The position numbers and the translations under genes were made by a program. Under the pieces are notes generated by a model, which was not told the DNA's origin, made no database searches, and saw only the letters and a program-made list of their open reading frames with translations. This document shows, one piece after another, positions 14,457 through 50,487 of a stretch of DNA of 64,000 bases (the first letter of the stretch is position 1; each line of letters starts with the position of its first letter). The stretch is from Candidatus Latescibacterota bacterium (GTDB taxonomy: Bacteria > Latescibacterota > UBA2968 > UBA8231), in assembly GCA_965219385.1 (NCBI GenBank), contig CBDCNM010000002.1, forward strand, positions 716,639-780,638. The letters run 5' to 3'.

Positions 14457-14474
14457 AAATCAAGGGAGGAAATC

Positions 14475-14882: not shown

Positions 14883-14916
14883 AAGAACCACCTGTTTTAT
14901 ATTCTCTATTGCCTCT

Positions 14917-14962
14917 GCAAAAGACGCCGATTCCACTCAGGTACCGGCGTCTTTGCTTTTTT
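14917..14962 (+). terminator. Intrinsic terminator between the convergent H1-like gene and nadE
   Basis: GCAAAAGACGCCG ... CGGCGTCTTTGC stem followed by TTTTTT. Confidence 0.75.
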
Positions 14963-30656: not shown

Positions 30657-31360
30657 ATATGAGCAATCCCATTCTATCCGTGCACAACCTGACCAAAACC
30701 TACCAGAGCGGAGGCCACCCCCTCACCGTCCTGCACGACGTATCCTTCGCGGTCGAGAGCGGCACCACCTGCGCCGTGGTCGGGGCTTCGGGGAGCGGCA
30801 AGACCACCCTCCTGGGCTTGTGCGCCGGCCTCGATGAACCCACCTCCGGCACAGTCGTGCTCAACGGCATCGGCATGAACTACCTGAACGAGGACCAGAG
30901 AGCCCGGTTCCGCAACGAACAAGTCGGTTTCGTCTTTCAAAACTTCCAACTCATTCCCACCCTGAGCGCCCTGGAAAACGTCATGGTGCCCCTGGAGTTG
31001 CGCCTGGCCCGCCAGGTGCAACTCCAGGCCGGCGAGTGGTTGGAACGCGTGGGCCTGGGCGACCGGCTGCACCACTACCCGGTCCAGCTCTCGGGCGGCG
31101 AGCAACAGCGGGTCGCCCTGGCCCGGGCCTTTGTCAACCATCCCCGGATCCTCTTTGCCGACGAACCCACCGGCAACCTCGACGCCGAAACCAGTCGGAC
31201 CGTCGAGGATCTGCTCTTCGAGTTGAACCGGGAGGCCGGCACCACCCTGGTCCTGGTCTCTCACGACCTCGAACTGGCCGGCCGCACCCAGCGCACCATC
31301 CGTCTCCAAGGCGGAGAAATCACCGCGGACACGGCCGTGGAGACCAGCGAGCGGCCATGA
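30653..31360 (+). CDS. ABC transporter ATP-binding protein (YbbA/LolD-like)
   Basis: [31 protein letters not shown]. Confidence 0.92.
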
Positions 31361-33942
31361 ATCCCGACCTGTCCACCTACCTGAAAACACCTTCCCTGGC
31401 CCACCGTCTGAATCCCTGGTGGCTGGCGAAGATGGCCTGGCGCGACAGCCGCCGCCACCGCCGCCGCCTGCTGCTGTTCGCATCCTCCGTCACCACCGGC
31501 ATAGCGGCCCTGGTGGCCATGGGCACCTTGAGCTCCACCATGGAGCACAACGTGAACGCCCAGGCCAATGCCCTGCTGGGGGCCGACCTGGTCGTCAGCA
31601 ACAACCAGTCTTTCAGCAAAGAGATGGAAACCCTCTTCGCCGCAATGGGCGGGGAACAATCCCGCCAGATCCGCTTCTCCTCCATGGTTTATTTTCCCAA
31701 AGCTGCGGGGACTCGCCTGGTACAGGTCCGCGCCCTGGAAGGGGGTTTCCCCTACTACGGCGAGTTCAAAACCGCTCCCGCCGCCGCGGCCCGCGGCTTT
31801 ACAAAAGGCCGCAATGCCCTGGTCGACGACACCCTGATGCTCCAGTTCAACGCCGGGGTGGGCGACTCCATCAAGGTCGGCGCCCTGATGTTCCGCATTG
31901 CCGGACGGTTGCGCAAGATACCCGGCGAGACCCCGATGATGAGCAACCTGGAACCGCGAGTCTGTATCCCGGCCGCCTTTCTGGAGGAGACCAGACTGGT
32001 CCGGCAGGGGAGCCGGGTTTCCTACCACATCTTTTTCAAGTTCGCAGAGCAAGGAGATGTCGATGAGATGATGGAGCGGGTGCAGCCGCGTTTCGAGGAA
32101 TGGCACCTGAGCTACGAAACCGTCTCCAGCCGCAAGCGGAACATCGGCCGTCCCCTGCGCAACCTCTACCGCTTTCTCAACCTGGGTAGTTTTATCGCCC
32201 TCTTGCTGGGCAGCGTGGGGGTGGCCAGTTCGATCCACACCTACGTAAAACAAAAACTGAACACCATTGCCATCCTGCGCAGCCTGGGAGCCAACCCCTC
32301 ACAGACCCTCGGCGTCTACCTGCTCCAGGCCGCGGCCATGGGTCTGATCGGTTCGGCCGCCGGGGTCCTGGTCGGCATGGCAGTCGTGGCCCTGCTCCCG
32401 GCCGTGCTGGGCGACTTGCTGCCCCTGGATATCCAGTTCGATATGGCCACGGTATCTATTACAACCCTGCTCAAGGGGTTGTCCTTGGGCCTGGGCATGG
32501 CCGTGGTTTTCGCCCTGCTGCCCCTTTTACAGATCCGCAGGGCATCGCCCTGGCTGGCCCTGCGGGTTTCCTTCGAGGAAAACCAGGCCCTGAAAAAAGA
32601 CCCCTGGCGCTGGTTCTTGTACCTGTTGATCGCCCTGGGCATCGGCGGTTTCGCCCTGAGCCAGACCCGGATCTGGGAACATGGCTTGGGCTTTGCCGTG
32701 GCCCTGGGTCTGGCTTTTGGCCTCCTGGCCCTGGTGGCCCGGGCCATCATTTTTGCCGCTCGCCGCTTTTTTCCTCTTTCCTGGAACTATATCTGGCGTC
32801 AGGGCCTGGCCAATCTCTACCGGCCCAACAACCAGACCGCCATGCTGGTCCTGGCCCTGGGTCTGGGCACCTTTTTGATCGCCACCCTCTATCTGCTGCA
32901 AACCGCCCTGCTCAATGATATCACCTCGGTCAGCGACCAGGAGCAACCCAACATGGTGTTCATCGATATCCAGACCGACCAGGTGGAATCCGTGGCCGCA
33001 CTGGTGGAGGATTTCGATGTCACCCTCCTGCAGCAGGTACCCGTGGTGCCCATGCGCCTGACCCACGTGAAGGGAAAAAGCGTCCACGACCTGCGCAACG
33101 ACCCGAATTCCAGGGTGTCCCGCTGGGCTTTAGACCGGGATTACCGCTCCACCTACCGGGACCACTTTACCGATACCGAGACCCTGACAGCCGGCCAGTG
33201 GCGCGAGCGCGCGCACGGCGACGCGGTCTTCATCTCCCTCGATCAGAATCTGGCGCGCCATTTGAAGGTGGAACTGGGGGATGAAATCGTCTTTGACGTA
33301 CAGGGGGTGCCCATCGCCGCCTTGGTCGGCAGTCTGCGCTCGGTCAACTGGCGCCGGGTGCGGCCCAACTTCATGGTCCTGTTTCCCGCCGAGGTCCTGG
33401 AAGAGGCGCCGCAATTCCACGTGTTCGTGTTGCGCAGCCATTCCAGCGCGGCGAGCGCCGCCCTACAACGGGCCCTGGCCGCCCGCTTCCCCAATGTTTC
33501 CACCATCGACCTGGAACTCATCCTGAGTACCATAAACGCCATTCTGGACAAGGCCTCCGTGGTGATTCGCTTCATGGCCCTGTTCAGTGTGAGCACAGGG
33601 CTGCTGGTGCTGCTGGGGGTGATCACCAGCAGCCGCTATCAGCGCATGCTCGAAAGCGTGCTCCTGCGGACCCTGGGGGCCACCCGCCGGCAGGTCGTCA
33701 GGATCGTGATTCTGGAATACTTTTTCCTGGGTAGTCTGGCCGCCCTGAACGGACTGATCCTGGCCCTGGCCAGCACCTGGGCCCTGACTTACTTTATTTT
33801 TGATATTTCCTTTGCGCCGTCCTGGTCGCCCCTGATCCTGGTTCTGAGCCTGGTCGTCGGGCTGACGGTCGTGGTGGGTTTGCTCTGCAGCAGGGGGCTG
33901 CACGACAGGCCGCCGCTGGAGGTGCTGCGCGCCGCGGGGTAA
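31357..33942 (+). CDS. ABC transporter permease, YbbP/FtsX-like
   Basis: Two FtsX-like halves (LLGADL, FPYYG, IAILRSLGA, FIDIQ, VLLRTLGA). ATGA overlap with the ATPase gene. Confidence 0.9.
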   Translation: MNPDLSTYLKTPSLAHRLNPWWLAKMAWRDSRRHRRRLLLFASSVTTGIAALVAMGTLSSTMEHNVNAQANALLGADLVVSNNQSFSKEMETLFAAMGGEQSRQIRFSSMVYFPKAAGTRLVQVRALEGGFPYYGEFKTAPAAAARGFTKGRNALVDDTLMLQFNAGVGDSIKVGALMFRIAGRLRKIPGETPMMSNLEPRVCIPAAFLEETRLVRQGSRVSYHIFFKFAEQGDVDEMMERVQPRFEEWHLSYETVSSRKRNIGRPLRNLYRFLNLGSFIALLLGSVGVASSIHTYVKQKLNTIAILRSLGANPSQTLGVYLLQAAAMGLIGSAAGVLVGMAVVALLPAVLGDLLPLDIQFDMATVSITTLLKGLSLGLGMAVVFALLPLLQIRRASPWLALRVSFEENQALKKDPWRWFLYLLIALGIGGFALSQTRIWEHGLGFAVALGLAFGLLALVARAIIFAARRFFPLSWNYIWRQGLANLYRPNNQTAMLVLALGLGTFLIATLYLLQTALLNDITSVSDQEQPNMVFIDIQTDQVESVAALVEDFDVTLLQQVPVVPMRLTHVKGKSVHDLRNDPNSRVSRWALDRDYRSTYRDHFTDTETLTAGQWRERAHGDAVFISLDQNLARHLKVELGDEIVFDVQGVPIAALVGSLRSVNWRRVRPNFMVLFPAEVLEEAPQFHVFVLRSHSSAASAALQRALAARFPNVSTIDLELILSTINAILDKASVVIRFMALFSVSTGLLVLLGVITSSRYQRMLESVLLRTLGATRRQVVRIVILEYFFLGSLAALNGLILALASTWALTYFIFDISFAPSWSPLILVLSLVVGLTVVVGLLCSRGLHDRPPLEVLRAAG

Positions 33943-33947
33943 TTAAA

Positions 33948-33996
33948 CCCTTGCGAATTCTACGGAGCCAAAAATCCATCTCCATTCGCAAAAGGG
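33948..33996. terminator. Inverted repeat just after the last core gene; possible terminator at the island boundary
   Basis: CCCTTGCGAAT ... ATTCGCAAAAGGG with an inner GGAG/CTCC pair; no clear poly-T. Confidence 0.4.
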
Positions 33997-34197
33997 CCGA
34001 ACCATTGTTGACCTACGTCGGGAATACGGTAGTTAAGCGCCAGTGCGTGATCGAAACTCTTGAGAGGCACTTGCTACGTGCAGGAATTGATAAAAAATTT
34101 GGGCGATAAATTTCCTTTTCAAGTCGAGACAACAAGACCATCAACGGCAGAGCGTGAAGGACGAAAGTGGCCCATTCGATTACGTCGCAACAATTCA

Positions 34198-34395
34198 ATG
34201 GAACCAGGCCGGACGTGGATTTTCACGGATGGAGGTGGAGGGGGCAGGTTTGCAGCCGCGATTGTCCGTCCTTGCATTGAGGAGTACCGTACGGGCCGGC
34301 GAGAAATCAACTCCAACAGCGTCGTCGCCGAACTCGACGGAGTCATTCTAGGTCTGGAAAACACCGTCTTGGGGGAAAGGGTCACAAGCGCTTAA
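34198..34395 (+). pseudogene. Truncated RNase H-like N-terminal fragment in cassette 1
   Basis: WIFTDG...NSVVAELDGVILGL matches the first two RNase HI acidic motifs. The ORF stops (TAA inside the attC R'' box) before the expected DS motif. Confidence 0.55.
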
Positions 34396-34474
34396 CACCG
34401 TGACCCCGGCTCCGGGCCTTTTCGGCCCTCCGCCCAACCGCTGCGCGGGTTCGTGGGTGCCGAGAGCGTTATGA
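34390..34474 (+). other. attC-like site 1
   Basis: GCTTAAC-ACCGTGACCCCGG...CTCCGCCCAACC..GCGGGTTCGTGGGTGCCGAGAGC-GTTATGA. GCGCTTAAC (34388-34396) is the exact reverse complement of GTTAAGCGC (34032-34040). Confidence 0.75.
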
Positions 34475-34549
34475 GAAATGCCAAAACCTTGTTCTACAGC
34501 GTCGCTCTGAGATTCTTACGCCGAGACAAAAGGTCAGAAAGACAACACT

Positions 34550-37156
34550 ATGGCTTTTCTACTTCTGTCAATTCTCCTATTGCTGTGGTCATGTTTTGCG
34601 AGCGCTGCAACAAACTTCGTTTGTGCCGGGCTCAGCACTGAGAGTATTGATCTGAGGCTCCCTGACGAGGCGGCCAAGGTGGCGCCGTTTGAGTCCTTGG
34701 AAACAAGGCACGCCCTTCTCGTTTTCACGGGCTTCCCAGGCGACACGGCCACGCTACCCAGCTGGGCCTCCGACGTATTCGACCCCGGGAGGGAGGGAAG
34801 CCTGACTCACTTCTATGATGAGATGTCCTTTGGAGGCCTGAAGGTCAGTGGCAGTGTGGCCCCCCAAAGGTATATTTCAAGTAGAGATGCCATCTCTTAC
34901 GCCTCTGAAGATCATACCGGGCTTGGCCGATTCGGGGAGTTCGTGGCGGAGATCGTCGCGATGGCCGATGACGATATCGATTTCGCTCAGTTCGATAGTG
35001 ACGGACCGGATGGGCTCCCGAACTCTGGTGATGACGACGGAGTCGTCGACATGCTGTTCGTCGTCACGCCCGCAGTCCCTCGCAACTTTCTGTTAGGTTC
35101 GGCCACAGGGATTGCCAGCCTTGGACTCACCAGGGATTTGGAGACCGATGATCAGACGATCGATGGTGCGCCGGTTCGCATCTCATCTCGCAACGGAACG
35201 GTCCAGGTAGGCAGATCCTTCAGCAAGACCGTCGGCGTCCTGGCGCACGAAGTCGGCCACCTCCTGGGACTTCCAGATCTTTTCAACACGAATTGGATTC
35301 GGAGTACGGAGCCGCTCGGTCCTATGCTGGATTCAGCCGGCATCGGCGCCTGGGAGCTGATGGGATGGGGCGCCTCGGGCTGGAACGGCAATGATGGCCC
35401 CAACAGCTTCAGCGCCTGGAGCCGGGTGCAGTTGGGGTGGACGCAGGTAATGGACCTGGACCAGCTGCGGCAGGAGATTGAGCTGGAAGACATTGGCCGC
35501 GGAGGGCGCGTGTACCGAATTCCCCTCGGCGCGACCGAGTCCTACTTGCTGGAATATCGCCGGCGCGACGGGAGCTACTATGATCGCAATATCCCTGAAG
35601 AGGGTCTGCTGATCTGGCATCAGGTGCTCGAGTTGGGGCAGATCCTCGACCTGGAATGCGCCGACGGACGCTGGCGCGACGCAGGATTTCCCTTGGGCTC
35701 CGTGCCCGCTCCCGAGACCGGGCAAGACAACCTCGACTTCTGGGCTCACGATCAGGATTACGCCCACGCCCACAGCGGCAACCTGGGGGATGCAACCGAT
35801 ATATTCGACGGCCTGCGCTTCACTTCGTTCACGCCAGAGGGGAATCCCTCCTCCAGGACCAAGAGGGGACTGACACCCCGGATAGAGGGCATCCGGCAGG
35901 AGGGGAGCCGCCTCCGAGCCTTGGTGTCGTTGAATCCGGCCAGGCTGTCTGTCGTCCAGTTTGCACTGCTGGACAGCACCGACGACGGGGTAGTCGAGCC
36001 GGGTGAGTCTGCGCAATTGCGATTTGGACTTGTAAATAGGGGAGGAATCGTCGCACGGGACGTCCGGGTTGTGTTCGACACGGGCGAGGCTCTACGAGTC
36101 GAACCCGAGGTCTTGCAATATCTCGACGTTGACGTAACAGGATATCAGGGGGCTCCGACGCGGCCGAGCCTGACGCTTACCGGCCCTTTGGTGGGGGCGA
36201 GGACCATTCCGCTGACGATGCGTATGCTCACCGACGGCGAGGAAGTGGGTCGTGATACGTTCCGCATTGAGGTGGCAACGCCGCGTCAGAGAGTGGTGGG
36301 CGTGACGGTGATCGACTCGGCCGGCAACGGGGACGGCGTCGCGCAGAAGGGGGAGATTGTGCAGGTGTCGGCCCGGCTCGAAGTATCGAGCGCAGCGGCG
36401 ATGAGGGCCCTCCGGTTCTCAATGGCCAAACTGGACAGCGATGTGGTCTGTTTGAGCACGGATCGCGTGACCTTCGTTCAGGAGAGTGATTCAACGGTCA
36501 TCGCTGCAGTAATGCCGGAATTTCTACTTCCGTCCGACCTGCCGTCCGGGAGACGGCTGGAATTCGAGCTGCAAGCGACGGGCACATTTGAAAGCTGGCT
36601 GGACACGCTGACGGTCGAGGTAGGAGAGGGGCTGGACGAGACGGCACCGAGAGTGACATCGCTGCGCGTGCAAACGACAGGTGACGGACTACTGATCCGC
36701 GTGGAGGGTCGTTGGATCCTGGAGAGTAGCGACGTCCATGAAGTCTGGGCGATCATAAGATCGCTAGATGGCTCAGCAGACCTGGCCGTGCTACCACTGG
36801 CTCGCGAGGACACCTGGTACGAGGGCGTATGGACGGGCGAACCGGGTGCGTACCAGGTGCGGGTTGAAGCGGTGGATGCCAGCGGCAATACTGGACGTAG
36901 CCCGGCCCGGAGTGCGACCCTGTTACAGGGGTCTTCCCTCGGAGCCGGAACGTTCACCGTCGGTGGCGAGTGGCGGGAAGTAGATCTCCCACTCGATGAG
37001 CGAGACGGAACGGTGACGGACGTGGCGATCGCGCCGACCGATCCAAACGTTTGGTACGCAACCACCCTATCGGGGTTGCATCGAAGCGAAGACGGGGGGC
37101 GGACCTGGATAAGGACGGGACTGATGTTTAACGGGGTTTCAATATCGGAAGAGTGA
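34550..37156 (+). CDS. Secreted M6-family (immune inhibitor A-like) zinc metalloprotease, N-terminal part; probably frameshifted into the next ORF
   Basis: Signal peptide; SLTHFYDEMSFG, DFAQFD..DG, AHEVGHLLGLPDL, WELMGWG, SAWSRVQLGW, GLLIWH. Ends within a BNR repeat. Confidence 0.85.
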   Translation: MAFLLLSILLLLWSCFASAATNFVCAGLSTESIDLRLPDEAAKVAPFESLETRHALLVFTGFPGDTATLPSWASDVFDPGREGSLTHFYDEMSFGGLKVSGSVAPQRYISSRDAISYASEDHTGLGRFGEFVAEIVAMADDDIDFAQFDSDGPDGLPNSGDDDGVVDMLFVVTPAVPRNFLLGSATGIASLGLTRDLETDDQTIDGAPVRISSRNGTVQVGRSFSKTVGVLAHEVGHLLGLPDLFNTNWIRSTEPLGPMLDSAGIGAWELMGWGASGWNGNDGPNSFSAWSRVQLGWTQVMDLDQLRQEIELEDIGRGGRVYRIPLGATESYLLEYRRRDGSYYDRNIPEEGLLIWHQVLELGQILDLECADGRWRDAGFPLGSVPAPETGQDNLDFWAHDQDYAHAHSGNLGDATDIFDGLRFTSFTPEGNPSSRTKRGLTPRIEGIRQEGSRLRALVSLNPARLSVVQFALLDSTDDGVVEPGESAQLRFGLVNRGGIVARDVRVVFDTGEALRVEPEVLQYLDVDVTGYQGAPTRPSLTLTGPLVGARTIPLTMRMLTDGEEVGRDTFRIEVATPRQRVVGVTVIDSAGNGDGVAQKGEIVQVSARLEVSSAAAMRALRFSMAKLDSDVVCLSTDRVTFVQESDSTVIAAVMPEFLLPSDLPSGRRLEFELQATGTFESWLDTLTVEVGEGLDETAPRVTSLRVQTTGDGLLIRVEGRWILESSDVHEVWAIIRSLDGSADLAVLPLAREDTWYEGVWTGEPGAYQVRVEAVDASGNTGRSPARSATLLQGSSLGAGTFTVGGEWREVDLPLDERDGTVTDVAIAPTDPNVWYATTLSGLHRSEDGGRTWIRTGLMFNGVSISEE

Positions 37157-39186
37157 CCGTCGACCCACTGAACCCTGCAACCGTGTATGTCACGGAATAT
37201 GGCCAGTTGCTCCTGAGTCGCGACGGAGGGGCTACCTGGAACCGAATTGGGCTGCCCGTTGAGGAAGGGGACAGACTGGAGGTGGCGGTAGACGCCGTCC
37301 TGCCCGGGCGAATCTACGCCACCGGTGTCCGCGGGTTGCTCATTTCCGATGACGACGGGGCCACGTGGCGTCTCGCCGGTGCAAAGCCGACGGTGGAACG
37401 CGGTGTATTCGCTCACCCCAGAAGGAGGTCCGACGTGTTCGGACTGCAAGTTAGCACGGATTCAGATGGTAACCCCAGTAGCAGCGTGATCTGGCGCAGC
37501 TCCGATGGGGGCCGAACGTGGCGAACCATTGAACCGGGGCTACTACTGAGCCGTCTGCGACCCGACCCCAGATCGCCGGAGGCGCTCTACGGGCTCTCGG
37601 AAAATGGCGTATTCCACAGTATGGACGGCGGCGAGACCTGGAGAAACCTGGAGGCAGGTATTTCCGGGCAATGGGGCGACCTTGCCACGGACCCGCAAGT
37701 GCCTGGCCTCCTTGTTGTGGGATCCTCCATTGGGCACGATGGGAAGATAGTTGCTTCAGATGATGGTGGAGAGACCTGGGCCGAGCCGGTTGTCGCAACC
37801 GCATCACACGTGGTTTTGCGGGGTGACAGAGTAGCCGTACTCAGTGGCGGCCGATTGTTCAGGATCATCGGTGGACCGCTGGACGGGGCGAGCGAGGAAG
37901 CGATGGTTCGAGTCGTGAACCCGCCGACGGGGGGCATCGTTTTCAACGCTGCGGGGCACGGGGTGGCCGGTGGGTTGCTAACGGTGGAGGGCCGCCAGCG
38001 TCAGGGAGTGTTCTCCTCCGTAGACGGTGGCGAATCGTGGGTATGGCGTGGCTCGACGAAGCGGATCGGCGGGGGCTCCTACGGCATGTTCGGCATGGTA
38101 TTCATGGATCCGTTTCTACCTGAAGTCCTCTTTGCACACATCAGCACAGGACTCAACTTCTACGCACGGTCAGAAGATGCGGGCCTGAGTTGGGATGGGA
38201 TCGACGTCGCCCAGAGTGGTCGCTCTATCGGCCAAATGCTCGTGCGCCCTCCCATCGTCGCCCATCCCGAAGAAGATGGGGTGTATTATCTGGGTGACCT
38301 GCAGGTGTACCGCTCGGAGGACTTTGGGTCCACCTGGAGCGCTCGGGGACCACTGGAGAGGTCAGTTCGTAGCGGAGACATAGACACTATAGGTGGCCTG
38401 GCCCTGGATCCCAGAGCTCCAACGAGGATCCTGGCTTCGCTCGGTGACTCCCTGTGGTTCAGCCAGAACGAGGGGGCTACCTGGGAGGTACTGGGCCGTA
38501 TTCAGCGGCGGGAGCGTATCTTCAGCCTCGCGTACCATCCCATCGACGCGAACCAGCTCTATAGTGCAACGGTGGGAGGTGTGTACCGGTCGGTGGACGG
38601 GGGGCTCATGTGGGAACGATCGCTGACGCCCGAATCGAAGCGTTGGATCAGTGCCCACATTCGGCAGCACCCGATACAGGCGGATCGAGTGTACGTGGTG
38701 ACTAGCCGCGAGTTATATGAGAGTCGTGACGGCGGTCGCACCTGGCAACCACTACATCAGAAGTTCGGTGGTCTGCCCTGGTTCAACGACGTGGCGGTAA
38801 GCCCGACCAACCCCGAAGTCCTGTTCGTAGCAACGACGTGGGGGCTTTTCAAGCTGGAGAGCGGCAGCAAGACCTCCCTAGTAGAGGAAGCGGCCTATGT
38901 CGCGCCAGAGAGCTTTGGACTGGACCAGAATTTTCCGAATCCGTTCAATCCCTCCACGACCATCCGCTACCAGCTATCCAACGGAGCAAACGTCGAATTG
39001 GGTGTGTACACCATGCTGGGACAGAAAATCCGGCATCTTGTGGAAACCCATCAACCTACAGGACATTATACCGTGCGCTGGGATGGCCGCGATGACCGAG
39101 GAGCTGAGTTGGCTACCGGGGTCTATGTGTATCGCCTAAAAGTCGGCACCCAAACGCAGGCACGTAAACTTTTACTGCTGCGATAA
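37153..39186 (+). CDS. BNR/Asp-box beta-propeller with C-terminal FlgD-Ig (T9SS-like) sorting domain; probable 3' part of the protease gene
   Basis: Many S.DGG.TW repeats. C-terminus LDQNFPNPFNPSTTI...WDGRDD...GVYVYRL...KLLLLR. No signal peptide of its own. Confidence 0.85.
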   Translation: MTVDPLNPATVYVTEYGQLLLSRDGGATWNRIGLPVEEGDRLEVAVDAVLPGRIYATGVRGLLISDDDGATWRLAGAKPTVERGVFAHPRRRSDVFGLQVSTDSDGNPSSSVIWRSSDGGRTWRTIEPGLLLSRLRPDPRSPEALYGLSENGVFHSMDGGETWRNLEAGISGQWGDLATDPQVPGLLVVGSSIGHDGKIVASDDGGETWAEPVVATASHVVLRGDRVAVLSGGRLFRIIGGPLDGASEEAMVRVVNPPTGGIVFNAAGHGVAGGLLTVEGRQRQGVFSSVDGGESWVWRGSTKRIGGGSYGMFGMVFMDPFLPEVLFAHISTGLNFYARSEDAGLSWDGIDVAQSGRSIGQMLVRPPIVAHPEEDGVYYLGDLQVYRSEDFGSTWSARGPLERSVRSGDIDTIGGLALDPRAPTRILASLGDSLWFSQNEGATWEVLGRIQRRERIFSLAYHPIDANQLYSATVGGVYRSVDGGLMWERSLTPESKRWISAHIRQHPIQADRVYVVTSRELYESRDGGRTWQPLHQKFGGLPWFNDVAVSPTNPEVLFVATTWGLFKLESGSKTSLVEEAAYVAPESFGLDQNFPNPFNPSTTIRYQLSNGANVELGVYTMLGQKIRHLVETHQPTGHYTVRWDGRDDRGAELATGVYVYRLKVGTQTQARKLLLLR

Positions 39187-39250
39187 GCGGCTTCTAAATG
39201 ACACAGACACGTGGCGGTGGAGAGAAATGACATTCCGATGGAGGATCTGA

Positions 39251-39835
39251 ATGACTAGCTGGCTCGAATTGACATTCCCGGGTGACACTAGAAAGGGATC
39301 CGTGCTTGTTATCGATGACGAACGAGTCAATGTGCTCACGGATCCTCTACGGTGGCGCATCCTGGAAACTCTTGGGGAGGGGAAATCCGTGGCAGAGATT
39401 TCGTCGATATTGGGCGTTACCGATACCCGGGTGCTCCGCCACTTGGAACGACTCGCGGAATCAGCTGTCGTACATCTTCAAGAAACTGGTAGTGACCCGA
39501 GGGCTTGGCGTTGCCTCCCAGCGGCAGGCAAGATTCGACTCCGGGACCCACTTGATGAGACGGCCCAAACCTCCGAGCCAGTACCTTCGGAGACTGTTTG
39601 CCAGTTTAATCAAGCGTTTCGCGAAAGTGCGGACGGCATATTCGGTCCAAATTTTCAAAGCTCTGTCAACCATAACCGCGCTCGACTCTCGGAAGATCAG
39701 GCGGCCGAATTCAACCGTCGGCTCCTGAACCTCATAGAGGAGTACTTTCCACCTGGTAGGGGAGATCCTTCCGGAATCAAGTATGGCTTTTTCGGGGTGC
39801 TAACCCCGATTGATCTTCCTCCTATTGAGTCGTGA
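39251..39835 (+). CDS. ArsR-like winged helix-turn-helix protein
   Basis: LTDPLRWRILETL..KSVAEISSILG..VLRHLERL; C-terminal RLSEDQAAEF; GGAGG RBS. Confidence 0.75.
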   Translation: MTSWLELTFPGDTRKGSVLVIDDERVNVLTDPLRWRILETLGEGKSVAEISSILGVTDTRVLRHLERLAESAVVHLQETGSDPRAWRCLPAAGKIRLRDPLDETAQTSEPVPSETVCQFNQAFRESADGIFGPNFQSSVNHNRARLSEDQAAEFNRRLLNLIEEYFPPGRGDPSGIKYGFFGVLTPIDLPPIES

Positions 39836-39968
39836 TAGTGTGGATTATGCACCCTATGCGTTGACAAGGAATTTCTACCGAAAATGTGGGTTCAGCGTGT
39901 ACAAGCGATCACGAACTGACAATCCTGGCTGTCCAGAGGAGATTTGGCTTTCAAAGAAAGTAGAATGA
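39834..39968 (+). pseudogene. C-terminal fragment of a GNAT acetyltransferase
   Basis: Manual translation DSVDYAPYALTRNFYRKCGFSVYKRSRTDNPGCPEEIWLSKKVE* contains the GNAT motif FY.K.GF. No N-terminal part is present. Confidence 0.55.
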
Positions 39969-40162
39969 GAAATGACAAATGAAGCCCAGTCCTGAGCGGT
40001 CGGGTACATCATTGACAAAATAGTCCGGGGACATGGTTTACACTTCCTTCAGGCGTCATCGGCCTCACCCAGAGTACGTCTAATTGGTCCACTAGTCCGA
40101 GATGACGGCAAGTCTTTAAAGCCCATGAAGATACAAGAGGACATGTGGCCAAAGTAAAAACC

Positions 40163-40191
40163 TTGCGTGCTATACGTCATTGGCGTATATT
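40163..40191 (+). promoter_or_regulatory. TA promoter with palindromic operator
   Basis: -35 TTGCGT (40163-40168), 17-bp spacer, -10 TATATT (40186-40191). Palindrome TATACGTCA-T-TGGCGTATA at 40171-40189. Confidence 0.75.
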
Positions 40192-40197
40192 AGGCGT

Positions 40198-40515
40198 ATG
40201 ATCTTCGTCGAAACGCCAATCTTCACAAAGGAGATTTTGACACTATTATCCGATGAGGACTACCGGGCAATACAGCTGGCCCTTCTATTCCGCCCAGAAT
40301 CAGGAGAGATAATTCAGCGTACGGGTGGATTGCGAAAACTTAGATGGAAATTTCCTCGCGCTGGCAAGCGGGGCGGTCTTCGTGTTGTCTACTATTGGGA
40401 CAAGCCGGACGATGTCCTTTACATGCTCTAGGTGTATCTCAAGAGCCGGCAGGAAGATCTCACCCCTCGCCAGTGCAAGCTGCTTAGTAAGCTCGTAAAG
40501 GAGTATCTCGCATGA
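40198..40515 (+). pseudogene. RelE/HigB-family toxin interrupted by an in-frame TAG
   Basis: MIFVETPIF..GEIIQRTGGLRKLRW..GKRGGLRVVYY..YML, then TAG at 40429-40431. The frame continues VYLKSRQEDLT..EYLA to a TGA that overlaps the antitoxin ATG. Confidence 0.85.
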
Positions 40516-40802
40516 ACGAGCGCGACTTTGACCAACTTGTAGCCAGCGTCAAGCAAGCCGGAGCGATCAAGCGCGGCAAGTTGAAGCCAGGGCGGATGAC
40601 CCAGATGGATCCCGAAGATATCAGGATGATCCGGAGGAGACTGAATAAATCGCAATCAGAATTTGCCCTGATGATTGGCGTCAGCGTCTCTACTTTGCAA
40701 AATTGGGAGCAGGGACGGCGGCGTCCCGAGGGTCCTGCTCGGGCCCTGCTCAAGATTGCTTCGGAAAACCCCGAAACCGTGGCGCGGTCGTTAAGCGCTT
40801 GA
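40512..40802 (+). CDS. HigA/NadS-like Xre HTH antitoxin
   Basis: IRRRLNKSQSEFA..GVSVSTLQNWEQGRRRPEGPARALL; toxin-first gene order. Confidence 0.9.
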   Translation: MNERDFDQLVASVKQAGAIKRGKLKPGRMTQMDPEDIRMIRRRLNKSQSEFALMIGVSVSTLQNWEQGRRRPEGPARALLKIASENPETVARSLSA

Positions 40803-40835
40803 GCAACCACTCAACCCTACCCCTGGCCACACATC

Positions 40836-40917
40836 CTCTAACACCGTGCCCCCGGCTACGGCGCCTTGGCACCTTCGCCCAACCACTACGCGGTTCGGGG
40901 GCACTGAAACGTTAAGT
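40836..40917 (+). other. attC-like site 2
   Basis: CTCTAAC-ACC-GTGCCCCCG...CTTCGCCCAACC..GCGGTT-CGGGGGCAC-TGAAAC-GTTAAGT, with a perfect 9-bp inner stem. Confidence 0.8.
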
Positions 40918-40974
40918 GCAATGCCGCAGGAATAGAGGCAACCGATTCGACCAGGAGGTGTCAGAAATCAGGAG

Positions 40975-41138
40975 ATGTCAGAAATTCTGTTCATTGGTGT
41001 TGCAATCCTTTTAAGGGTGGATCATAGATTTCTTTTCGAACTCCAGAAGCAGGCGAAATGGAAGCGTCAGCGAGATGGAGTCTTGAGGATTGGTATGGGC
41101 TGTATCGGTGGCACTGTGGAGGAAGGCGAGACCATCAT
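40975..41138 (+). pseudogene. N-terminal fragment of a NUDIX-like protein
   Basis: GVAILL..RFLF...CIGGTVEEGETII is the start of a Nudix box (GG.VE.GET) that breaks off before REL.EE. Confidence 0.5.
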
Positions 41139-41483
41139 TTCAGGGACGGAAGAAGGGTCTCATTCCTGCTTGAGCGGCGTATAGCATACGAGGTGCTAAA
41201 TGGTTCACTGCCACCGAGTGAGGGCGCTGGCTATGATGTTCTTGACTCTGAGGACCAGAAATGGGAAGTTCGAAGTGTCTCGCTCGCCGGAATCTACTTC
41301 TGCCCAAGCTACATGGTTGGTTCAGGAAGAAAATTCGAAGAGCTGGGCTTCCTGACAAAGATGGATGAAATTGCGGGTTACGTTGTCTCAGATATTCAGC
41401 GATTTCCTGCTGTTCCTTATTGGATCATTCCTGTTGATATAGTACGGGAGTGGTGGCAACAGAGAAAAGATTTCAAGAGATAG
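41139..41483 (+). pseudogene. 5'-truncated putative restriction endonuclease fragment
   Basis: FRDGRRVSFLLERRI..GYDVLD..KWEVRS resembles an E..D..E.K/R nuclease core. It lies directly upstream of a DNA methyltransferase. Confidence 0.45.
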
Positions 41484-41511
41484 GGCTCTTGAACTAATCC
41501 GGAAAATGTGA

Positions 41512-42783
41512 GTGACAGCAAATCAATTACAGCTCTTTAACCAGCCTGACACTTCAATAGCACCACTTTCATACAAAGACTTCCAGTATGCTATCGAGAG
41601 CTTCAGCGATTTCCGCAAGGAAACAGCAATTCTGGAATTCCCTGATCCAAACTTCGATATTCCTGTCTACGTAAATGAGTTCTGGACATCACAACAAAGA
41701 GCGGCCCACTCACTTCACGAGGTTTCGTATCGTGCTTGCTTTAAGCCCCAATTGCCGAAGTTCTTCATTCAGCGGCTTACTTATCCAGGCGACGCCGTCT
41801 ACGATCCCTTTATGGGGCGTGGCACGACTGTCATCGAGGCTGCGTTGCTAGGACGCTCACCCGTTGGAACGGACATCAATCCTCTAAGCAAAATACTGGT
41901 GGCTCCGCGACTCAATCCTCCCTCAATAGCAGCTATTTCAGAACGCCTGAGGGCACTACCTCTGGAAAGCGAGTGCAACACGTGGGAGGAGTTACTCGTC
42001 TTCTATCATCCGAATACACTGCTCCAGATAACCAACTTGCGGAACTACTTTCTTCGAAAACAAGAAGAGGGCAGCCTTGATGCGATCGATGAGTGGATAA
42101 GGATGGTGGCAACAAACCGCCTAACGGGTCATTCATCTGGTTTCTTTTCGGTCTATACATTGCCCCCAAATCAGGCTGTCACTGTTGAGCGACAGCGGAG
42201 CATCAACCAGAACCGAAAGCAGATGCCTCCCAAGAGGGATGTCAGAGAATCGATTCTGAGGAAATCTAGATCGCTCCTTAGTAAAATGGACTCGAGCGAC
42301 GCCGAGATGCTGCAAGATTCTTCTGCGAAGACATTACTTATAACCGGATCTTCAGACAACACTCCCGCTATCGAATGCGATTCTATTAGCCTTGTTGTAA
42401 CTTCGCCCCCGTTTCTGGATGTGGTAGACTACCAAACAGACAACTGGTTGCGGTGTTGGTTCAACGACATAGATGCACAAACGGTCGATATTTGGCATCT
42501 CAAAAAGCCAGAGGCGTGGCAAGCGGCCATGACGCGAGTATTTGCCGAGCTCAAGAGAGTTCTCAAACCAAAGGGTTATGTCGCTTTTGAGGTCGGGGAA
42601 GTTCGCAATGGGAAAATCCTCCTGGAATCGCTTGTTGTTCCGGCCGCGGCCGAAGCGGGTCTGGAACCCCTCCTCGTTTTGGTGAATGACCAAGTTTTCA
42701 CCAAAACGTCAAACTGCTGGGGCGTGGACAACCTCAAGAAGGGAACCAATACCAACAGGATCGTTCTGATAAGGAAGCCCTGA
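41512..42783 (+). CDS. Site-specific amino-DNA methyltransferase (motif I before motif IV; probably N4-C)
   Basis: YRACFKPQLP, DPFMGRGTT, DINP, VTSPPF, RVLKPKG. Confidence 0.88.
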   Translation: MTANQLQLFNQPDTSIAPLSYKDFQYAIESFSDFRKETAILEFPDPNFDIPVYVNEFWTSQQRAAHSLHEVSYRACFKPQLPKFFIQRLTYPGDAVYDPFMGRGTTVIEAALLGRSPVGTDINPLSKILVAPRLNPPSIAAISERLRALPLESECNTWEELLVFYHPNTLLQITNLRNYFLRKQEEGSLDAIDEWIRMVATNRLTGHSSGFFSVYTLPPNQAVTVERQRSINQNRKQMPPKRDVRESILRKSRSLLSKMDSSDAEMLQDSSAKTLLITGSSDNTPAIECDSISLVVTSPPFLDVVDYQTDNWLRCWFNDIDAQTVDIWHLKKPEAWQAAMTRVFAELKRVLKPKGYVAFEVGEVRNGKILLESLVVPAAAEAGLEPLLVLVNDQVFTKTSNCWGVDNLKKGTNTNRIVLIRKP

Positions 42784-42832
42784 GTACCCCTCGTAGGTTA
42801 CCTTGCTCCCCGCTTGTGCAGGCTGGCACTTC

Positions 42833-42889
42833 CCACAACACCGTGCCCCCGGCTTCGCGGTTCGGGCGCAGCCCTCTGCCTCATTATAG
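42833..42889 (+). other. attC-like site 3 (short, ATT core)
   Basis: CCACAAC-ACCGTGCCCCCGGCT (same start as site 2)..GCGGTTCGGGCGCA..GCCTC-ATTATAG. Confidence 0.65.
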
Positions 42890-42907
42890 GCAATGGGAAA
42901 AAACAGG

Positions 42908-43576
42908 ATGTTAATCAGATTTGAAGATTATAACGGTGCAGAAGGACAATTCATCGCAAACTATCCAGTACTATGGGAGGAACTGTCTCAGGTTTTAGAA
43001 GCGATGCCTCCTCACATTAAGGCGTCTGATCAGGCAGGAATTCAAGGAAAGCCGATCTTTGATCCCGTAGGTACAAACGAATTCATCAAGAGTAAGCTTT
43101 CGTCCAAAGGATGGCGAGCAAATATACCGATACCAAAACAATTTGATTTTCTCGGCACCGATATTGACTTTGGGAAATCTGGCGTTCTAGTTGAGGCACA
43201 GTTTTCAAATTACCCATTTTTGCTCAATAATACTCTTCGATCAGAATTGTTTTATAAAGCGGAGATTCCTTTGGGTGGAGAACCAACAGAAGTTGTGGTT
43301 ATAATTACGAAAGCCCATATGTTTCCAGCATCGAACAGCACTCTTTACTTTGAACAGGCTCACAATCAACTAACAGAGCTATTTCGTTACAATGTGTTCG
43401 ACGTGCCAATCAGGCTTGTAGGTTTGTTTGAAAGATTAGGTGAAAAAGTAGATTCTGTATTTACTGAATATAAAAATCCTCGCTATTCCCGTACAGTTGT
43501 AGAGAGAAATGAAGTCCCATGTACCATACATCGCGGAAGATCATCAAGGAGCAGATGCAATATCGTGTTAGGGTAA
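42908..43576 (+). CDS. Type II restriction endonuclease, BglII-like
   Basis: HIKASDQA..IFDPVGTN, IPIPKQFDFLGTDIDFGK, VEAQFSNYPFLLNN, MFPASNS and RYSRT match BglII as recalled. Alternative start at 42893. Confidence 0.9.
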   Translation: MLIRFEDYNGAEGQFIANYPVLWEELSQVLEAMPPHIKASDQAGIQGKPIFDPVGTNEFIKSKLSSKGWRANIPIPKQFDFLGTDIDFGKSGVLVEAQFSNYPFLLNNTLRSELFYKAEIPLGGEPTEVVVIITKAHMFPASNSTLYFEQAHNQLTELFRYNVFDVPIRLVGLFERLGEKVDSVFTEYKNPRYSRTVVERNEVPCTIHRGRSSRSRCNIVLG

Positions 43577-43584
43577 ATTAAAGT

Positions 43585-44685
43585 TCACTCAAATAAAAGC
43601 CCTTGCTGGTGGGAAATGGTATCAGATTTGCTCTTTCTTTCTTGAGGAACACCACCATTTAGCTTGGTATCAATAGGACGTTCTTCACCTCGTAAATCTG
43701 CCCCAAAAGCCATTTCTTCGTATTCTAATCGTCCTTCAAGTTCTTGTAGATGATATTCTTCAGGATATATTTTAGCTTTACTTCTCTTAGTAGGCGTACT
43801 ACCGACTTGAACATCAAATCGGAATTTTTCAATTGGCTCCCCAGTTTTGTCCACATAATCTCTTAGTGTTTTAAGATTAGGGAATATACCATTTTCGTTT
43901 GGTTCTCCCTTAAGACGTCTTGTAGCTATATTATGATATTTCTCATCAAGTTCTGCACCGATAAAATGACGACCATAATCTCGAGCTACCACAGCGACTG
44001 TTCCAGCTCCCATATAGGGATCCATTACTATCCCTTCGGGTTCTGTACTGCTCAATACTATACGGGCAATTAAGTCCTCAGGGAATTGGCATGGATGAAT
44101 TGTCTGTTCTTCATGGTTATGTTTTACGTTTCGAAAAGCCCAAATATCTCCTGGATTTTTGCCGTCAGGATTGCAAGAAAATTCGCCGCGTTTTTCTCCT
44201 TTATAATGCTTTTTATTTTGCCATTTCTGTGGCACTCTAATAGAGTCAAGATTAAAAAAATAATTATCAGAAGCTGTAAACCATAAGATAGTCTCATGGC
44301 GACAAGAGAATTTTCTCCTACCATGTAGACCGTGTTGACGAACCCACATAATCCGGTTACGAGGAATTAAACCAATTGACTCAAAGATAGGAAAAAAACG
44401 AATATCTAAAGGAATCAACATGCCTTTGTCAGAAAAAGCACCGACTTGCCAAAAAATGGATCCTGTAGACTTTAAAACACGTGCACACTCCTGGAGAACA
44501 ACTGTCTGCTCTTCAAGGTAGTGTTCCAAAGCCATTCTGGCTTCATATTCCTTACCCAGATTATAAGGAGGCGAGGACACAACCAAGTCGATACAATCAT
44601 CGGGGAGACTTTGTAAAAGAGTGAGACAGTTTCCCTGGTATATCTGATCAAGAGGCAAATTATCTTTGGATGTTTGCTTTGCCAT
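43585..44685 (-). CDS. Cognate beta-class N4-cytosine DNA methyltransferase (M.BglII-like)
   Basis: SSPPYN precedes HPCQFP and DPYMGAGT. Convergent with the endonuclease; AT-rich. Confidence 0.9.
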   Translation of the reverse strand: MAKQTSKDNLPLDQIYQGNCLTLLQSLPDDCIDLVVSSPPYNLGKEYEARMALEHYLEEQTVVLQECARVLKSTGSIFWQVGAFSDKGMLIPLDIRFFPIFESIGLIPRNRIMWVRQHGLHGRRKFSCRHETILWFTASDNYFFNLDSIRVPQKWQNKKHYKGEKRGEFSCNPDGKNPGDIWAFRNVKHNHEEQTIHPCQFPEDLIARIVLSSTEPEGIVMDPYMGAGTVAVVARDYGRHFIGAELDEKYHNIATRRLKGEPNENGIFPNLKTLRDYVDKTGEPIEKFRFDVQVGSTPTKRSKAKIYPEEYHLQELEGRLEYEEMAFGADLRGEERPIDTKLNGGVPQERKSKSDTISHQQGLLFE

Positions 44686-44832
44686 TGGTTATTTACCTTC
44701 CTAAGTTTTAATTCAACTTTATAAATATAAAGCTATACATTTGTTCAGTCAAGAATTTTGACAAAATTTCCAATAAATTACTGTTATTAATAAATTTTGT
44801 ATTTGGGTAATTTTCGGCTAATTGCCCACTGC

Positions 44833-44931
44833 CTATAACATCGCGGTTTACGCGGCGCGGCATTCGCCGCTTGGGGCTTCGCCCAACCCTCCGCTTCGCT
44901 CTGGGTTCGTAAACCCGCCGCCTCATTACAC
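44833..44931 (+). other. attC-like site 4 (ATT core)
   Basis: CTATAAC-ATCGC-GGTTTACG...CTTCGCCCAACC...CGTAAACC-CGCCGCCTC-ATTACAC, with a perfect 8-bp inner stem. Confidence 0.75.
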
Positions 44932-44963
44932 GACATTGACTGGCTTAGAATCTCGGAATTGAT

Positions 44964-45759
44964 ATGAACCGCATACACGAAGCCAACCGTCAGCTGTGGA
45001 ATGATCAGGTCGCTACCTGGGAGGAACGGAGCAACCGAGAAGGTCGGTGGCACCGATGCCACAAAGATCCTGATCTGGCGTTCGAAGGTGGAGCTCTTCA
45101 ACTGATTCAGACGGTTTGTGGCAGGTTAAGCAACAAGAAAGCATGCGTAATCGGCAGTGGTGACAATATGGCAGCGTTCGCCCTTGCAGGCCTGGGTGCG
45201 CAAGTTACGTCGACGGATATCTCGGAAGAGCAATTAGCGACGGGGTCACGTAGAGCTGAGCAACTCAGTTTATCAATCTCATTCGTTCGATCGGATGCCG
45301 CTTGCCAGGAATCGTTGGCCGATTCGAGCTTTGACCTCGTATGCTCGACCAACGGCTTTTTTGTGTGGATCGCCGATCTCGAAGCGGTTTTCGGGGAGGT
45401 CGTTCGAATTCTAAAGCCCGGTGGCTCTTATGTCTATTTCGATGTCCACCCATTTCAGCGACCCTGGAAGGACCAGGCGATCGCAGTTGAAATGGAAAAG
45501 CCTTATTGGTCCACAGGCCCATTTCAGCCGCGAGATAGTGACTCTTGTGAATTCAACTGGACTGACTGACCTTTTGAACCCAATGGCTGCGGCGGGGCTT
45601 ATGTTGGTCAAGCTCTTGGAGAGTCCAGCGCGCGACACGCGGTATTGGAAGGGGTCCTCTCATTGCGATCTTGAGGACGAAACATTATTGGATTGGAGTG
45701 AGAATCCCCGAGCTGGACTCCCGGTATGGCTGGCGGTTGCGGCCTGCAAGCCAGTTTAG
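44964..45759 (+). pseudogene. Class I SAM-dependent methyltransferase, frameshifted near 45560
   Basis: VIGSG, TDISEEQL, SFDLV, RILKPGG, HPF. The frame breaks at TGG-ACTGACTGAC and the C-terminus (DLLNPMAAAGL..P..L.V.A.K) continues in the +1 frame. Confidence 0.8.
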
Positions 45760-45776
45760 CGAAGTTGGGAAACGTC

Positions 45777-45869
45777 GTGTAACACATCGGTGTTGCGCTG
45801 CGGCGGCTCTGCCGCCTTGGCCTTTCGGGCAACCCGTTGCGCGGGTTCGCAAACCGTGAAACGTTGGGC
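45777..45869 (+). other. attC-like site 5
   Basis: GTGTAAC-ACATC-GGT(G)TTGCG...CGCAAACC-GTGAAAC-GTTGGGC; the stem has one extrahelical base, as in canonical attC. Confidence 0.8.
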
Positions 45870-45910
45870 CGCCATGAAGCCGCCGCCTCATTACACGACA
45901 GCTTACTATA

Positions 45911-46843
45911 AGAAGCCGTCTGAAAACTCTAATTTTCATTTGATTCGTTTAAGTAGCAAGTGGATCATGGCAATCTGGATCAAGGCTTCACTATGGCGGG
46001 TCAAGACCTCATAATCTCGGGCATGTCGGCGAAAATTCATCAACCACGCAAACGTGCGCTCGACGACCCACCGGCGTTTAACTACGGTAAATCCGGAGCC
46101 TTGTTTGGCGACGACTTCCAAGTCTATTTTGTGCGTCTTTTTTTGGTTGGCCACCCACGTTCGGATGGCCTCGCCTTGGTAGCCGCCATCAACCCACAGC
46201 TTGCGTAACCGAGCCACGCCGGCGGCCTTCAAGCGGGTCAACACCTGCTTCAAACCCTCTCGATCCTCGACATCGGCGGCGGTGACCACCACCTGTCGAA
46301 GCAAACCCGACGGGTCCACCAACAGATGCCGTTTGCGGCCTTTGATCTTTTTGCCGGCGTCATAACCGGTTGTTTTACCATGCGTTGCGGTCTTAATCGT
46401 CTGACTATCGACTACGCCAGCCGACGGCATCGCAGCCCGGCCGCTCTGGCGGCGCTCCCTCTTGGTCAGCCGATCCAACACCAGCGGCCAGACCCCTTGC
46501 AGGCTCCAGCGACGAAAGTAATCATACACCGTTTTCCACGGCCCAAAACAAGCAGGCAACAACGCCCAAGGACACCCCGTCTTGTTCAAATACAAAAGGC
46601 CGTTGACAAGCTGGCGTCGATCCCGCGGCGGCCGACCCGGACCGTGAAGCCGCCAGCGCGGCGCGGGCAGCAACGGTTCGATCCGCTGCCATTGTGCATC
46701 GGTTAGATCGGTGGCATATTGCATACGCGGTGTACTCATCATACAAGCCTTTCTGTTCAGAGTTTTGTGGTGAAACCTGAATATGGCTCGATGAGTACGC
46801 CCGTTCAAATGCGGCTACATCAGAGGGTTTTCAGACGGCTTCT
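45911..46843 (-). mobile_element. IS5-family insertion sequence, apparently complete
   Basis: 17-bp perfect terminal IRs AGAAGCCGTCTGAAAAC / GTTTTCAGACGGCTTCT, with TA on both sides. Confidence 0.9.
45936..46742 (-). CDS. IS5-family transposase
   Basis: YATDLTDAQW, TGCPWALLP, VDSQT, GYDAGKKIKGRKRH, VDGGY, RWVVERTFAW. Confidence 0.95.
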   Translation of the reverse strand: MMSTPRMQYATDLTDAQWQRIEPLLPAPRWRLHGPGRPPRDRRQLVNGLLYLNKTGCPWALLPACFGPWKTVYDYFRRWSLQGVWPLVLDRLTKRERRQSGRAAMPSAGVVDSQTIKTATHGKTTGYDAGKKIKGRKRHLLVDPSGLLRQVVVTAADVEDREGLKQVLTRLKAAGVARLRKLWVDGGYQGEAIRTWVANQKKTHKIDLEVVAKQGSGFTVVKRRWVVERTFAWLMNFRRHARDYEVLTRHSEALIQIAMIHLLLKRIK

Positions 46844-46844
46844 T

Positions 46845-47222
46845 ATGGCTGGTAGCGTTGAACCCGGCGGCGACGGCCTCGGTCAACCTGTCATTTTCTA
46901 TTATTTTGGGTTGCCTGGATATACGGTCGGAGCTGCCTTTGGCGTGAGCCAAGTCGATCCACATGATCGCTTCGTAGCCTCGATGATGGGCAGTTTGCTA
47001 GGGCTTGGAGCAGGTGGTGGATTGGTGGCTATGACTGGAAATCCCTATTTCGTTCTTGCCTGCCCTATTGCCTCAGTCGCCTTGGCAGTATGGCTGTCTG
47101 AAGATTCTCGCAACCGTTTGGGTGAACCTACGTCCAATCCCTCTGAAGTCCCCGGTTTTTCCATCGGCTTGGAGCCAAGTCCTAGAGGGTGCTTGTCCGC
47201 GGTCGCCACGTTACGATTCTGA
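46845..47222 (+). pseudogene. Gly-rich hydrophobic membrane-protein fragment, probably 5'-truncated by the IS
   Basis: Begins at the IS end; hydrophobic helices; ends in a beta-strand-like LSAVATLRF. Confidence 0.4.
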
Positions 47223-47318
47223 ACGGATGCGTTGGGGAAACACCCAATCCAGTAATCTAGTAGCGGAGGCGGCTGGAGCACCAATGGATAATCCACTACT
47301 CGATAATGGAGCACATCG

Positions 47319-50408: not shown

Positions 50409-50487
50409 CGGCAGAGGTCGGGGATGGACAGGTGGCGCTGACCTGGGAGACGCCGGCGGACAACGGCTCGGCGCTGACGGGGTATGA
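50095..50487 (+). pseudogene. Middle FN3 module of the giant gene, stranded between two frameshifts
   Basis: GQARLSWT..ITQWQYR..LTNGVDYQFQVRALN. The frame is lost at the G5 run 50379-50383. Confidence 0.75.

Follow-up and report, generated by a model that had tools for sequence, protein, structure and literature searches.

The window examined here, a stretch of 64,000 nucleotides from a Candidatus Latescibacterota bacterium (G000:C2:716639-780638, where G000 is this genome and C1 and C2 are its contigs), contains a real, decaying row of gene cassettes with its own family of attC-like sites. It is probable that this row is the head of a decaying array which keeps an attI-like site and which was built by a tyrosine recombinase encoded elsewhere, one without the insertion that characterises the integron integrases (IntI). 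A wider reading, towards which the balance tilts only slightly, is that the array represents a second kind of integron, in which a sister or ancestor of IntI without the insertion recombines folded attC sites via long, wobble-bearing arms and in which several attI-headed platforms occur per chromosome.

A first-pass annotation had listed five co-oriented imperfect palindromes in the window; all of the strings it quoted were located where it had placed them, all on the + strand, with R'' boxes at 34390, 40836, 42833, 44833 and 45777. The three complementary cassette-end matches it had reported (9/9, 13/15 and 11/13) were reproduced, and both mismatches in the latter two were found to be systematic, falling at position 1 and position 11. 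Three features had escaped it, namely a head resembling attI, the relic of a cassette start (40133) and the insertion sequence (IS) of the IS5 family at 45909-46843, and its reading of the 'A' of two ATT starts has to be corrected, this base being part of a short insert and not of attC. The sites and the structures associated with them are as follows.

33944..34020, + strand: platform leader, 92% identical to the DNA downstream of the recombinase gene C1:888121-889077
34015..34038, + strand: predicted attI-like core, with left arm, 5-nt spacer and G|TT; the crossover would fall at 34032|34033
34390..34474, + strand: site 1, attC-like and likely chimeric, its left half being similar to one subtype and its right half to another
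40836..40917, + strand: site 2, attC-like, intact, with a 9-bp L stem without a bulge
42833..42883, + strand: site 3, a truncated relic of ~50 nt, ending in the 3' end of the 27-bp insert
44833..44925, + strand: site 4, with R' lost, apparently via a deletion running into the 27-bp insert
45777..45869, + strand: site 5, attC-like, intact, with a three-hairpin terminal structure (bottom strand -33.1 kcal/mol, z -6.2)
45864..45890, + strand: 27-bp insert 'U', placed precisely after the G of G|TT, so that the junction reads A|TT

A hidden Markov model (HMM) grown from four of the window sites found 48 sites at E<0.01 genome-wide, in 14 clusters, against a best E of 0.66 in the reversed genome, and the repeats therefore exceed chance; the relic site 3 was missed by this genome search. 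The shared word ACCGTG.CCCCGGCT occurs 8 times in the genome, 3 of them in the window, and CTTCGCCCAACC occurs 9 times, 2 of them in the window. An assembly artefact was ruled out, as long stretches of the locus are reproduced, with 0-11 differences, by contigs of four runs belonging to three studies (33300-34128 with 0 and 34358-39331 with 0-11).

Evidence for a cassette array comes from the ends of the intervals between sites. Across the 33 intervals of less than 8 kb between neighbouring sites in this genome, arm positions 4-8 matched in 120/165 cases, compared with 86±4.9 (maximum 107) in 20,000 permutations, and in 33 cassettes from six relatives positions 5-7 matched in 71/99 compared with 33±4.9. 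These positions vary among cassettes yet pair inside each one. The first-pass annotation had also suggested folding the bottom strands: the predicted folds give an R box, an unpaired spacer, an L box and a variable terminal structure, and the bottom strand was the more stable in 21/24 rebuilt circular junctions (mean -27.0 vs -23.7 kcal/mol) and in 4/4 of those from the window. Cassettes also move at the base of the G|TT: the same cassettes begin there beside differing neighbours, and on a contig of run X7 a cassette known from the C1 attI instead follows the right end of an attC.

These observations bear directly on the possibility that the sites are dispersed palindromes of the repetitive extragenic palindromic (REP) or miniature inverted-repeat transposable element (MITE) type, with genes brought in by IS activity. 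The sites do lie over 14 loci, and at 6 of these an IS5-family copy is found less than 3 kb away, where ~0.055 per locus would be expected (three of these loci belong to one duplicated segment); the 5' half of the insert also forms free hairpins, which lie upstream of five paralogous genes. Against this, 13/14 clusters are confined to one strand, the observed complementarity was reached in none of the permutations, cassettes move at G|TT and attI cores stand at the heads of arrays, so that such an origin is very improbable; its simpler form, dispersed repeats without any relation to gene ends, fails on the one-stranded clusters and the end complementarity. What the first-pass annotation had named as grounds for abandoning the integron reading thus fails, even though the repeats do occur genome-wide, and its proposal of a cassette array with a distinct attC-like family is borne out by the complementary ends, the one-stranded clusters and the better folding of the bottom strands.

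The anatomy of the sites differs in several respects from that of canonical attC. Arms are 13-14 bp long, with a G-C pair at +8 in 27/33 cases in this genome and 30/33 in the relatives, and an A/C mismatch at +11 in 28/33 and 25/33 respectively, which becomes a G·T wobble on the bottom strand only. A second bottom-strand wobble lies at the first spacer base in 39/44 unique sites, a place where G is also usual in canonical attC (PMC2727003). The canonical bottom-strand extrahelical G in L'', as defined in that paper, was found in 0/44 unique sites by a simple best-stem search, the L stems having no bulge in 28/44 and other bulges in 16/44. The terminal part forms two or three small hairpins, with compensatory changes in 7/8 consensus pairs; RNAalifold, run on the terminal-hairpin alignment, did not recover the R and L stems, and Rfam gave 0 matches in 33500-47500.

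At the upstream end of the array an attI-like site is predicted from its sequence and position, and because it has been kept the window array is not just a cluster of attC sites. The core occurs in five copies in the genome, each heading cassettes, and also in a Latescibacteria record; it does not fold (-2.1 kcal/mol). Related cores, with two arms around a spacer varying by 1-2 nt, head arrays adjoining the recombinase in relatives. The five copies have differing left limits, which suggests that the platform copies may have been eroded from the recombinase side, and there are partial copies of the leader at C2:3691491 and C2:1622014. A DNA search of 40 relatives for the window leader gave 0 matches, the leader turning up only in locus L020; no further recombinase relics were found near the other attI copies by tblastn, and no + strand sigma-70 match that could represent a cassette promoter (Pc) was found in 33800-34700. 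The full leader (C1:889210-889345, which is L023, and L020) carries one or two hairpins of the form arm-TAAC, 16 nt, GTTA-arm, which are absent from the window copy and are possibly accessory binding sites; a reversed copy lies behind the C2 recombinase. The divergent type of attI (C2:1340038-1340065; L045-L048) holds a conserved palindrome, CGAAC-N5-GTTCG. This palindrome resembles the LexA box of Gram-positive bacteria, its spacing being off by one.

The array had been called integrase-less, and the window indeed contains no tyrosine recombinase (0/10 genomic PF00589 matches fall there). It is nevertheless not simply orphaned, since it begins with the predicted attI-like core, whose leader also lies behind a recombinase gene on C1. 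The search for a canonical IntI was negative, 0/13 TIGR02249 matches in this genome reaching the cut-off; the closest genes, those of two IntI-like recombinases without the IntI insertion at C1:888121 and C2:1340259, score 198.8 and 180.8 against a cut-off of 265. The first is co-oriented with two cassettes and shares the window leader, and the second is divergent from a 16-site array. Among PDB entries the C1 protein matches IntI4 (2a3v) best, the alignment showing a gap of ~40 residues, and both recombinases are without the ~40-residue IntI insertion around patch III: the distance from the catalytic Lys to His-x-x-Arg is 73 residues in both, whereas the 7 canonical IntI compared have 113-114 and the 5 Xer proteins 79-83. 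In a tree of 32 rows both group with IntI and apart from Xer (100/100), with IntI nested among insertion-less proteins (90/92) on a long branch; no order of events is claimed from this. The top NCBIfam match of the C1 protein is NF040815, at 199.4, under its cut-off of 220. The C1 gene keeps R-K-H-R-H-Y, although where its closest relatives (379-391 aa, with a weak HARP match) have an N-terminal extension of ~100 residues, it has an IS5-type end instead; the replaced form is also present in run X5. The C2 gene has, in the assembly, a frameshift before the last His and Tyr, and both copies thus look damaged. In two further loci (L018 and L019, in records titled Halieaceae and Planctomycetota) a piece of recombinase of 67% identity lies near attC of the same family.

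The link between this recombinase and these sites was examined in 40 relatives, using a covariance model built from 37 of the 48 sites and scoring 99 candidates per genome. The insertion-less gene was called at E<=1e-40 in nine relatives and, with fragments in G021 and G010, in 11; an 87-residue piece in G004 was not counted. At least 10 sites were present in 8/11 relatives with the gene and 0/29 without it, and arrays in these relatives reach up to 87 sites. Sites adjoin 7/9 insertion-less loci and 0/7 canonical intI loci, three of the latter carrying short attC candidates of a different build.

An ordinary attC-site cluster that has no integron-integrase (CALIN) must be considered here, in which a canonical IntI, since lost or unassembled, built the arrays and the insertion-less enzymes are bystanders. 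Canonical intI was over the cut-off in 8/41 genomes searched, origins of CALINs through intI loss or IS rearrangement are well described (PMC4889954), and IntI can recombine attC with attI without extrahelical bases, with lower strand specificity (PMC2727003). This explanation is nevertheless unlikely. The five relatives with canonical intI only have 0 sites of this family, the insertion-less gene lies at the attI end of arrays in both orientations, and G021, the apparent exception, carries an insertion-less fragment beside its own array.

Several points must be set against the insertion-less recombinase as the builder. In two relatives, G023 and G010, all or part of the enzyme is present alongside 0 sites; G012 has 9 sites, under the 10-site threshold; 9 sites also occur in G037, where both recombinases are absent; and in G024 there are 8 sites and, of the two recombinases, just a broken canonical intI, as the CALIN explanation would have it. 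That threshold, on which the 8/11 and 0/29 counts depend, was set after the data had been seen, the relatives are kin and so not independent, and the training sites of the covariance model came from this genome. It is conceivable, if unlikely, that a canonical IntI has been lost, G000 being 94% complete. The bulge assignments behind the count of 0/44 come from a crude best-stem search, and many of the sites are chimeric. No excised cassette circles were seen in the assembled contigs that were available from the runs; two joints (40924-44942 on one contig of depth 3.8, and 34020-34393 as a side of 26) are weak hints of circles only. The split of the array discussed below was not one clean inversion, and the origin of the insert is unexplained.

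If the array was built by the insertion-less recombinase, we infer that the enzyme acted on folded bottom strands. It would bind the double-stranded attI core together with a folded bottom-strand attC and, like IntI, carry out a single-strand exchange at G|TT. For binding and for the choice of strand it would depend on the 13-14-bp arms, the two bottom-strand G·T wobbles and the lopsided spacer, with no reliance on an extrahelical G held by the missing insertion. The wobbles and the asymmetry of the spacer are in this way putative strand choosers, a role made plausible by the finding that the spacer can still impose strand choice after removal of extrahelical bases (PMC2727003). A different mechanism is also conceivable, in which the insertion-less enzyme builds arrays on double-stranded sites in the manner of Xer or Cre and the hairpins are secondary. 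Such a mechanism would fit the length of the arms with their conserved positions (such as the G at +8), the attI core with its two arms around a short spacer, and a catalytic-domain segment shorter even than that of Xer. It is harder to reconcile with the sites themselves: within a single attC the arms are separated by 70-100 nt and come together only on folding, arm positions 5-7 vary between cassettes and pair within each, and it is only on the bottom strand, which also folds better, that the conserved mismatches form wobbles. Recombination on double-stranded sites is for these reasons improbable, even more so than an ordinary CALIN.

Under the favoured reading, in which the insertion-less recombinase worked on folded sites, a copy of the platform would have landed between the ABC permease gene and tesA, gathered defence and other cassettes and then lost its recombinase gene; IS elements would later have split the array, leaving further cassettes at C2:3.378-3.385 Mb. 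In 10/11 of the relatives' loci a tesA-like GDSL gene convergently follows the permease, and in this genome that gene lies at C2:3377289-3378005, 2.6 Mb off, abutted by a cassette, an attC and the 27-bp insert, all pointing toward it. The 5' arm of the last window cassette has its best match (11/13) in the R'' at C2:3384306 and its two duplicates, a locus where a 354-aa open reading frame (ORF) follows an IS. From the relocation of tesA and this arm match, it appears that one array was inserted between permease and tesA and was later split by several IS events. As both genomic recombinase copies look damaged, the array today is probably frozen or weakly served in trans.

The IS content of the genome is considerable. 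There are 27 related IS5 copies of more than 600 bp, together with many short elements with IS5-type terminal repeats (e.g. C1:888082, C2:1814904 and C2:2953664; 77 end matches in total), and an abundant second IS often adjoins IS5. An IS-rich segment of 5-8 kb with two or three cassettes is present in three copies of 99.97-100% identity (the C1 end, the C2 end and C2:3379-3387 kb); it sits twice at contig ends and may be an assembly overlap.

The 27-bp insert accounts for the A|TT junctions, and its remnants terminate sites 3 and 4. It is found at 0/16 main-array sites and 12/32 others (p=0.004; 9/29 without duplicates, p=0.017) and at two attI copies. No exact match was found in the metagenome contigs, and among the 75 family genomes 13 held only 1-3 matches with one mismatch, about what the control gave, so by these searches the insert is apparently peculiar to this genome. 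With IntI1, recombining partners have to agree in the first base of GTT (PMC2811028), and A|TT should therefore be a poor site. The 5' half of the insert resembles a cassette arm and the 3' half is partly like IS5-type ends; derivation from an IS5-type terminal repeat was rejected, the likeness being only partial. Our best guess is that it is the remnant of a nearly empty cassette riding ahead of others. The free hairpins formed by its 5' half lie at C2:212001, 1451080, 4116387, 4175522 and 4203964, and the five genes behind them belong to a paralogous family of ~20 members.

The cargo of the array and its neighbouring genes are listed below.

31357..33942, + strand: ATP-binding cassette (ABC) permease (MacB/FtsX), upstream core gene (Pfam; 65/76 genomes)
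34033..34468, + strand: cassette 1, RNase H-like ORF (motif read by eye)
34469..40132, + strand: unit 2, with a cassette-type 5' arm and three ORFs, without its own attC; adjacency bridged in three runs
34550-37156, + strand: M6 peptidase in unit 2
37153-39186, + strand: BNR-repeat/FlgD ORF in unit 2
39251-39835, + strand: ArsR-like helix-turn-helix in unit 2
40134..40911, + strand: HigBA-like toxin-antitoxin cassette (HigB-2 matches; antitoxin match)
40912..42883, + strand: type II restriction-modification cassette 1 (endonuclease 41058-41483, methyltransferase 41512-42783; PADLOC)
42884..44925, + strand: type II restriction-modification cassette 2 (BglII-like endonuclease 42893-43576, +; convergent N6/N4 methyltransferase 43585-44685, -; PADLOC)
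44926..45863, + strand: S-adenosylmethionine methyltransferase cassette, frameshifted near 45562
45891..45908, + strand: 5' end of the last cassette, cut by IS5 after 18 bp
45909..46843, - strand: IS5-family element ending the array (DDE transposase 45936-46808)

The permease next to the array, described in the first-pass annotation as a core gene, is indeed one, being present in 65/76 genomes of the family including this one. Cassette 1, whose ORF had no Pfam match, is 97.7% identical over 355 bp to a copy at C2:3384401 that has the same starting base and lies behind an attC, and is ~266 bp shorter than it; what seemed to be three other copies amount to one independent locus, all of them lying in one near-identical duplicated segment. 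Unit 2, with its 4.6-kb M6/BNR gene, may or may not be a cassette. Its ORFs for the M6 peptidase and for BNR/FlgD share 4 nt (37153-37156) and may be a single frameshifted gene. An arrangement in which unit 2 ends at site 3, with nested cassettes, was not established, as its 10/13 match is reached by 3/49 arms. At 39977-40146 the window is a mosaic, made up of two short segments that recur at C2:2164124 and in the main array at C2:1330835.

The HigBA cassette has only a relic of a 5' arm, the G|TT being lost, and its toxin ORF is shortened by an early stop codon; in G013 a homologue stands first at the attI, and it aligns with the relic start at 40133. A relative of the start of restriction-modification cassette 1 is found at C1:891529. 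The endonuclease of cassette 2 matches PDB 1d2i (BglII-like) at E 1e-74, and BglII sites have an observed/expected ratio of 0.70 in the genome, outside the ten most avoided palindromes. For this cassette and the methyltransferase cassette the own 3' arm is the best match among 49 arms; near 45562, in the latter, other contigs of four runs differ by two letters. Elsewhere in the window there is a long 15-bp tandem repeat with many identical copies (14391-14945), and beyond the array, at 47319-59509, there are ORFs of very large size with fibronectin III/cadherin-like repeats and a tail of the FlgD type, where a break at ~50408-50432 may divide one gene.

The IntI insertion is the basis on which integron integrases are defined and detected, and it has been described as essential. 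If recombinases without it do build such arrays, some CALINs would have a builder that the standard pipeline discards, and attI-headed platforms would be reported only as CALINs under current definitions. The step from Xer-like recombination of double-stranded sites to recombination of single-stranded attC would also be opened to test, with the +11 wobble as a specific, mutable candidate for strand choice. The window locus itself is a decayed piece, of value mainly as a worked example. A description of an insertion-less kind was not found in the literature searched, which mostly excluded subscription journals and supplements, nor in the accessible text of 10.1101/2022.02.06.479319, PMC9024848, PMC3607928 and 10.1101/2022.09.11.507474. 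Smyshlyaev 2021 (PMC8138268) included in an 'integron-like' subgroup members in which the insertion is not fully conserved; in its accessible text the insertion is called essential and no cassette arrays are assigned to members without it. Cury 2016 (PMC4889954) dismisses insertion-less recombinases.

Among known systems the closest likeness is to the sedentary chromosomal integrons (V. cholerae IntIA/IntI4, 2a3v), with which the window shares co-oriented cassettes, AAC/GTT ends, G|TT junctions, a bias towards folding of the bottom strand, a core like attI that does not fold, and cargo comprising HigBA and defence genes, the last also reported in sedentary arrays (10.1101/2024.07.02.601686). 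Unlike these integrons, the present genome has five copies of one attI core and, unlike canonical integrons in general, its recombinases are without ~40 residues around patch III, its sites are without the extrahelical G and the +11 wobble is conserved; a canonical integron also has intI beside attI, and there is none at the window locus. The C1 recombinase, co-oriented with its cassettes, is like the Treponema-type integrons in which intI points toward attI (PMC3607928), although this genome, unlike those, has a divergent insertion-less platform as well. The attG sites and single attC sites lacking integron-integrases (SALINs) of 10.1101/2022.09.11.507474 would explain cassettes scattered off the platform; the attG consensus is GWT, whereas here the insert that precedes A|TT is a fixed one of 27 bp, and attI heads are scattered in their entirety. 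The designation CALIN, used in the first-pass annotation, is apt in that there are at least two attC-like sites (4 HMM matches and one relic) with no intI nearby, and IS-driven splitting, as inferred for the window, is among the origins listed in PMC4889954; it is less apt in that an attI-like head is kept and the builder was likely non-canonical. The array thus resembles a sedentary integron and falls within the operational definition of a CALIN, and it stands apart from canonical integrons in two features, the insertion of the recombinase and the extrahelical G of the sites.

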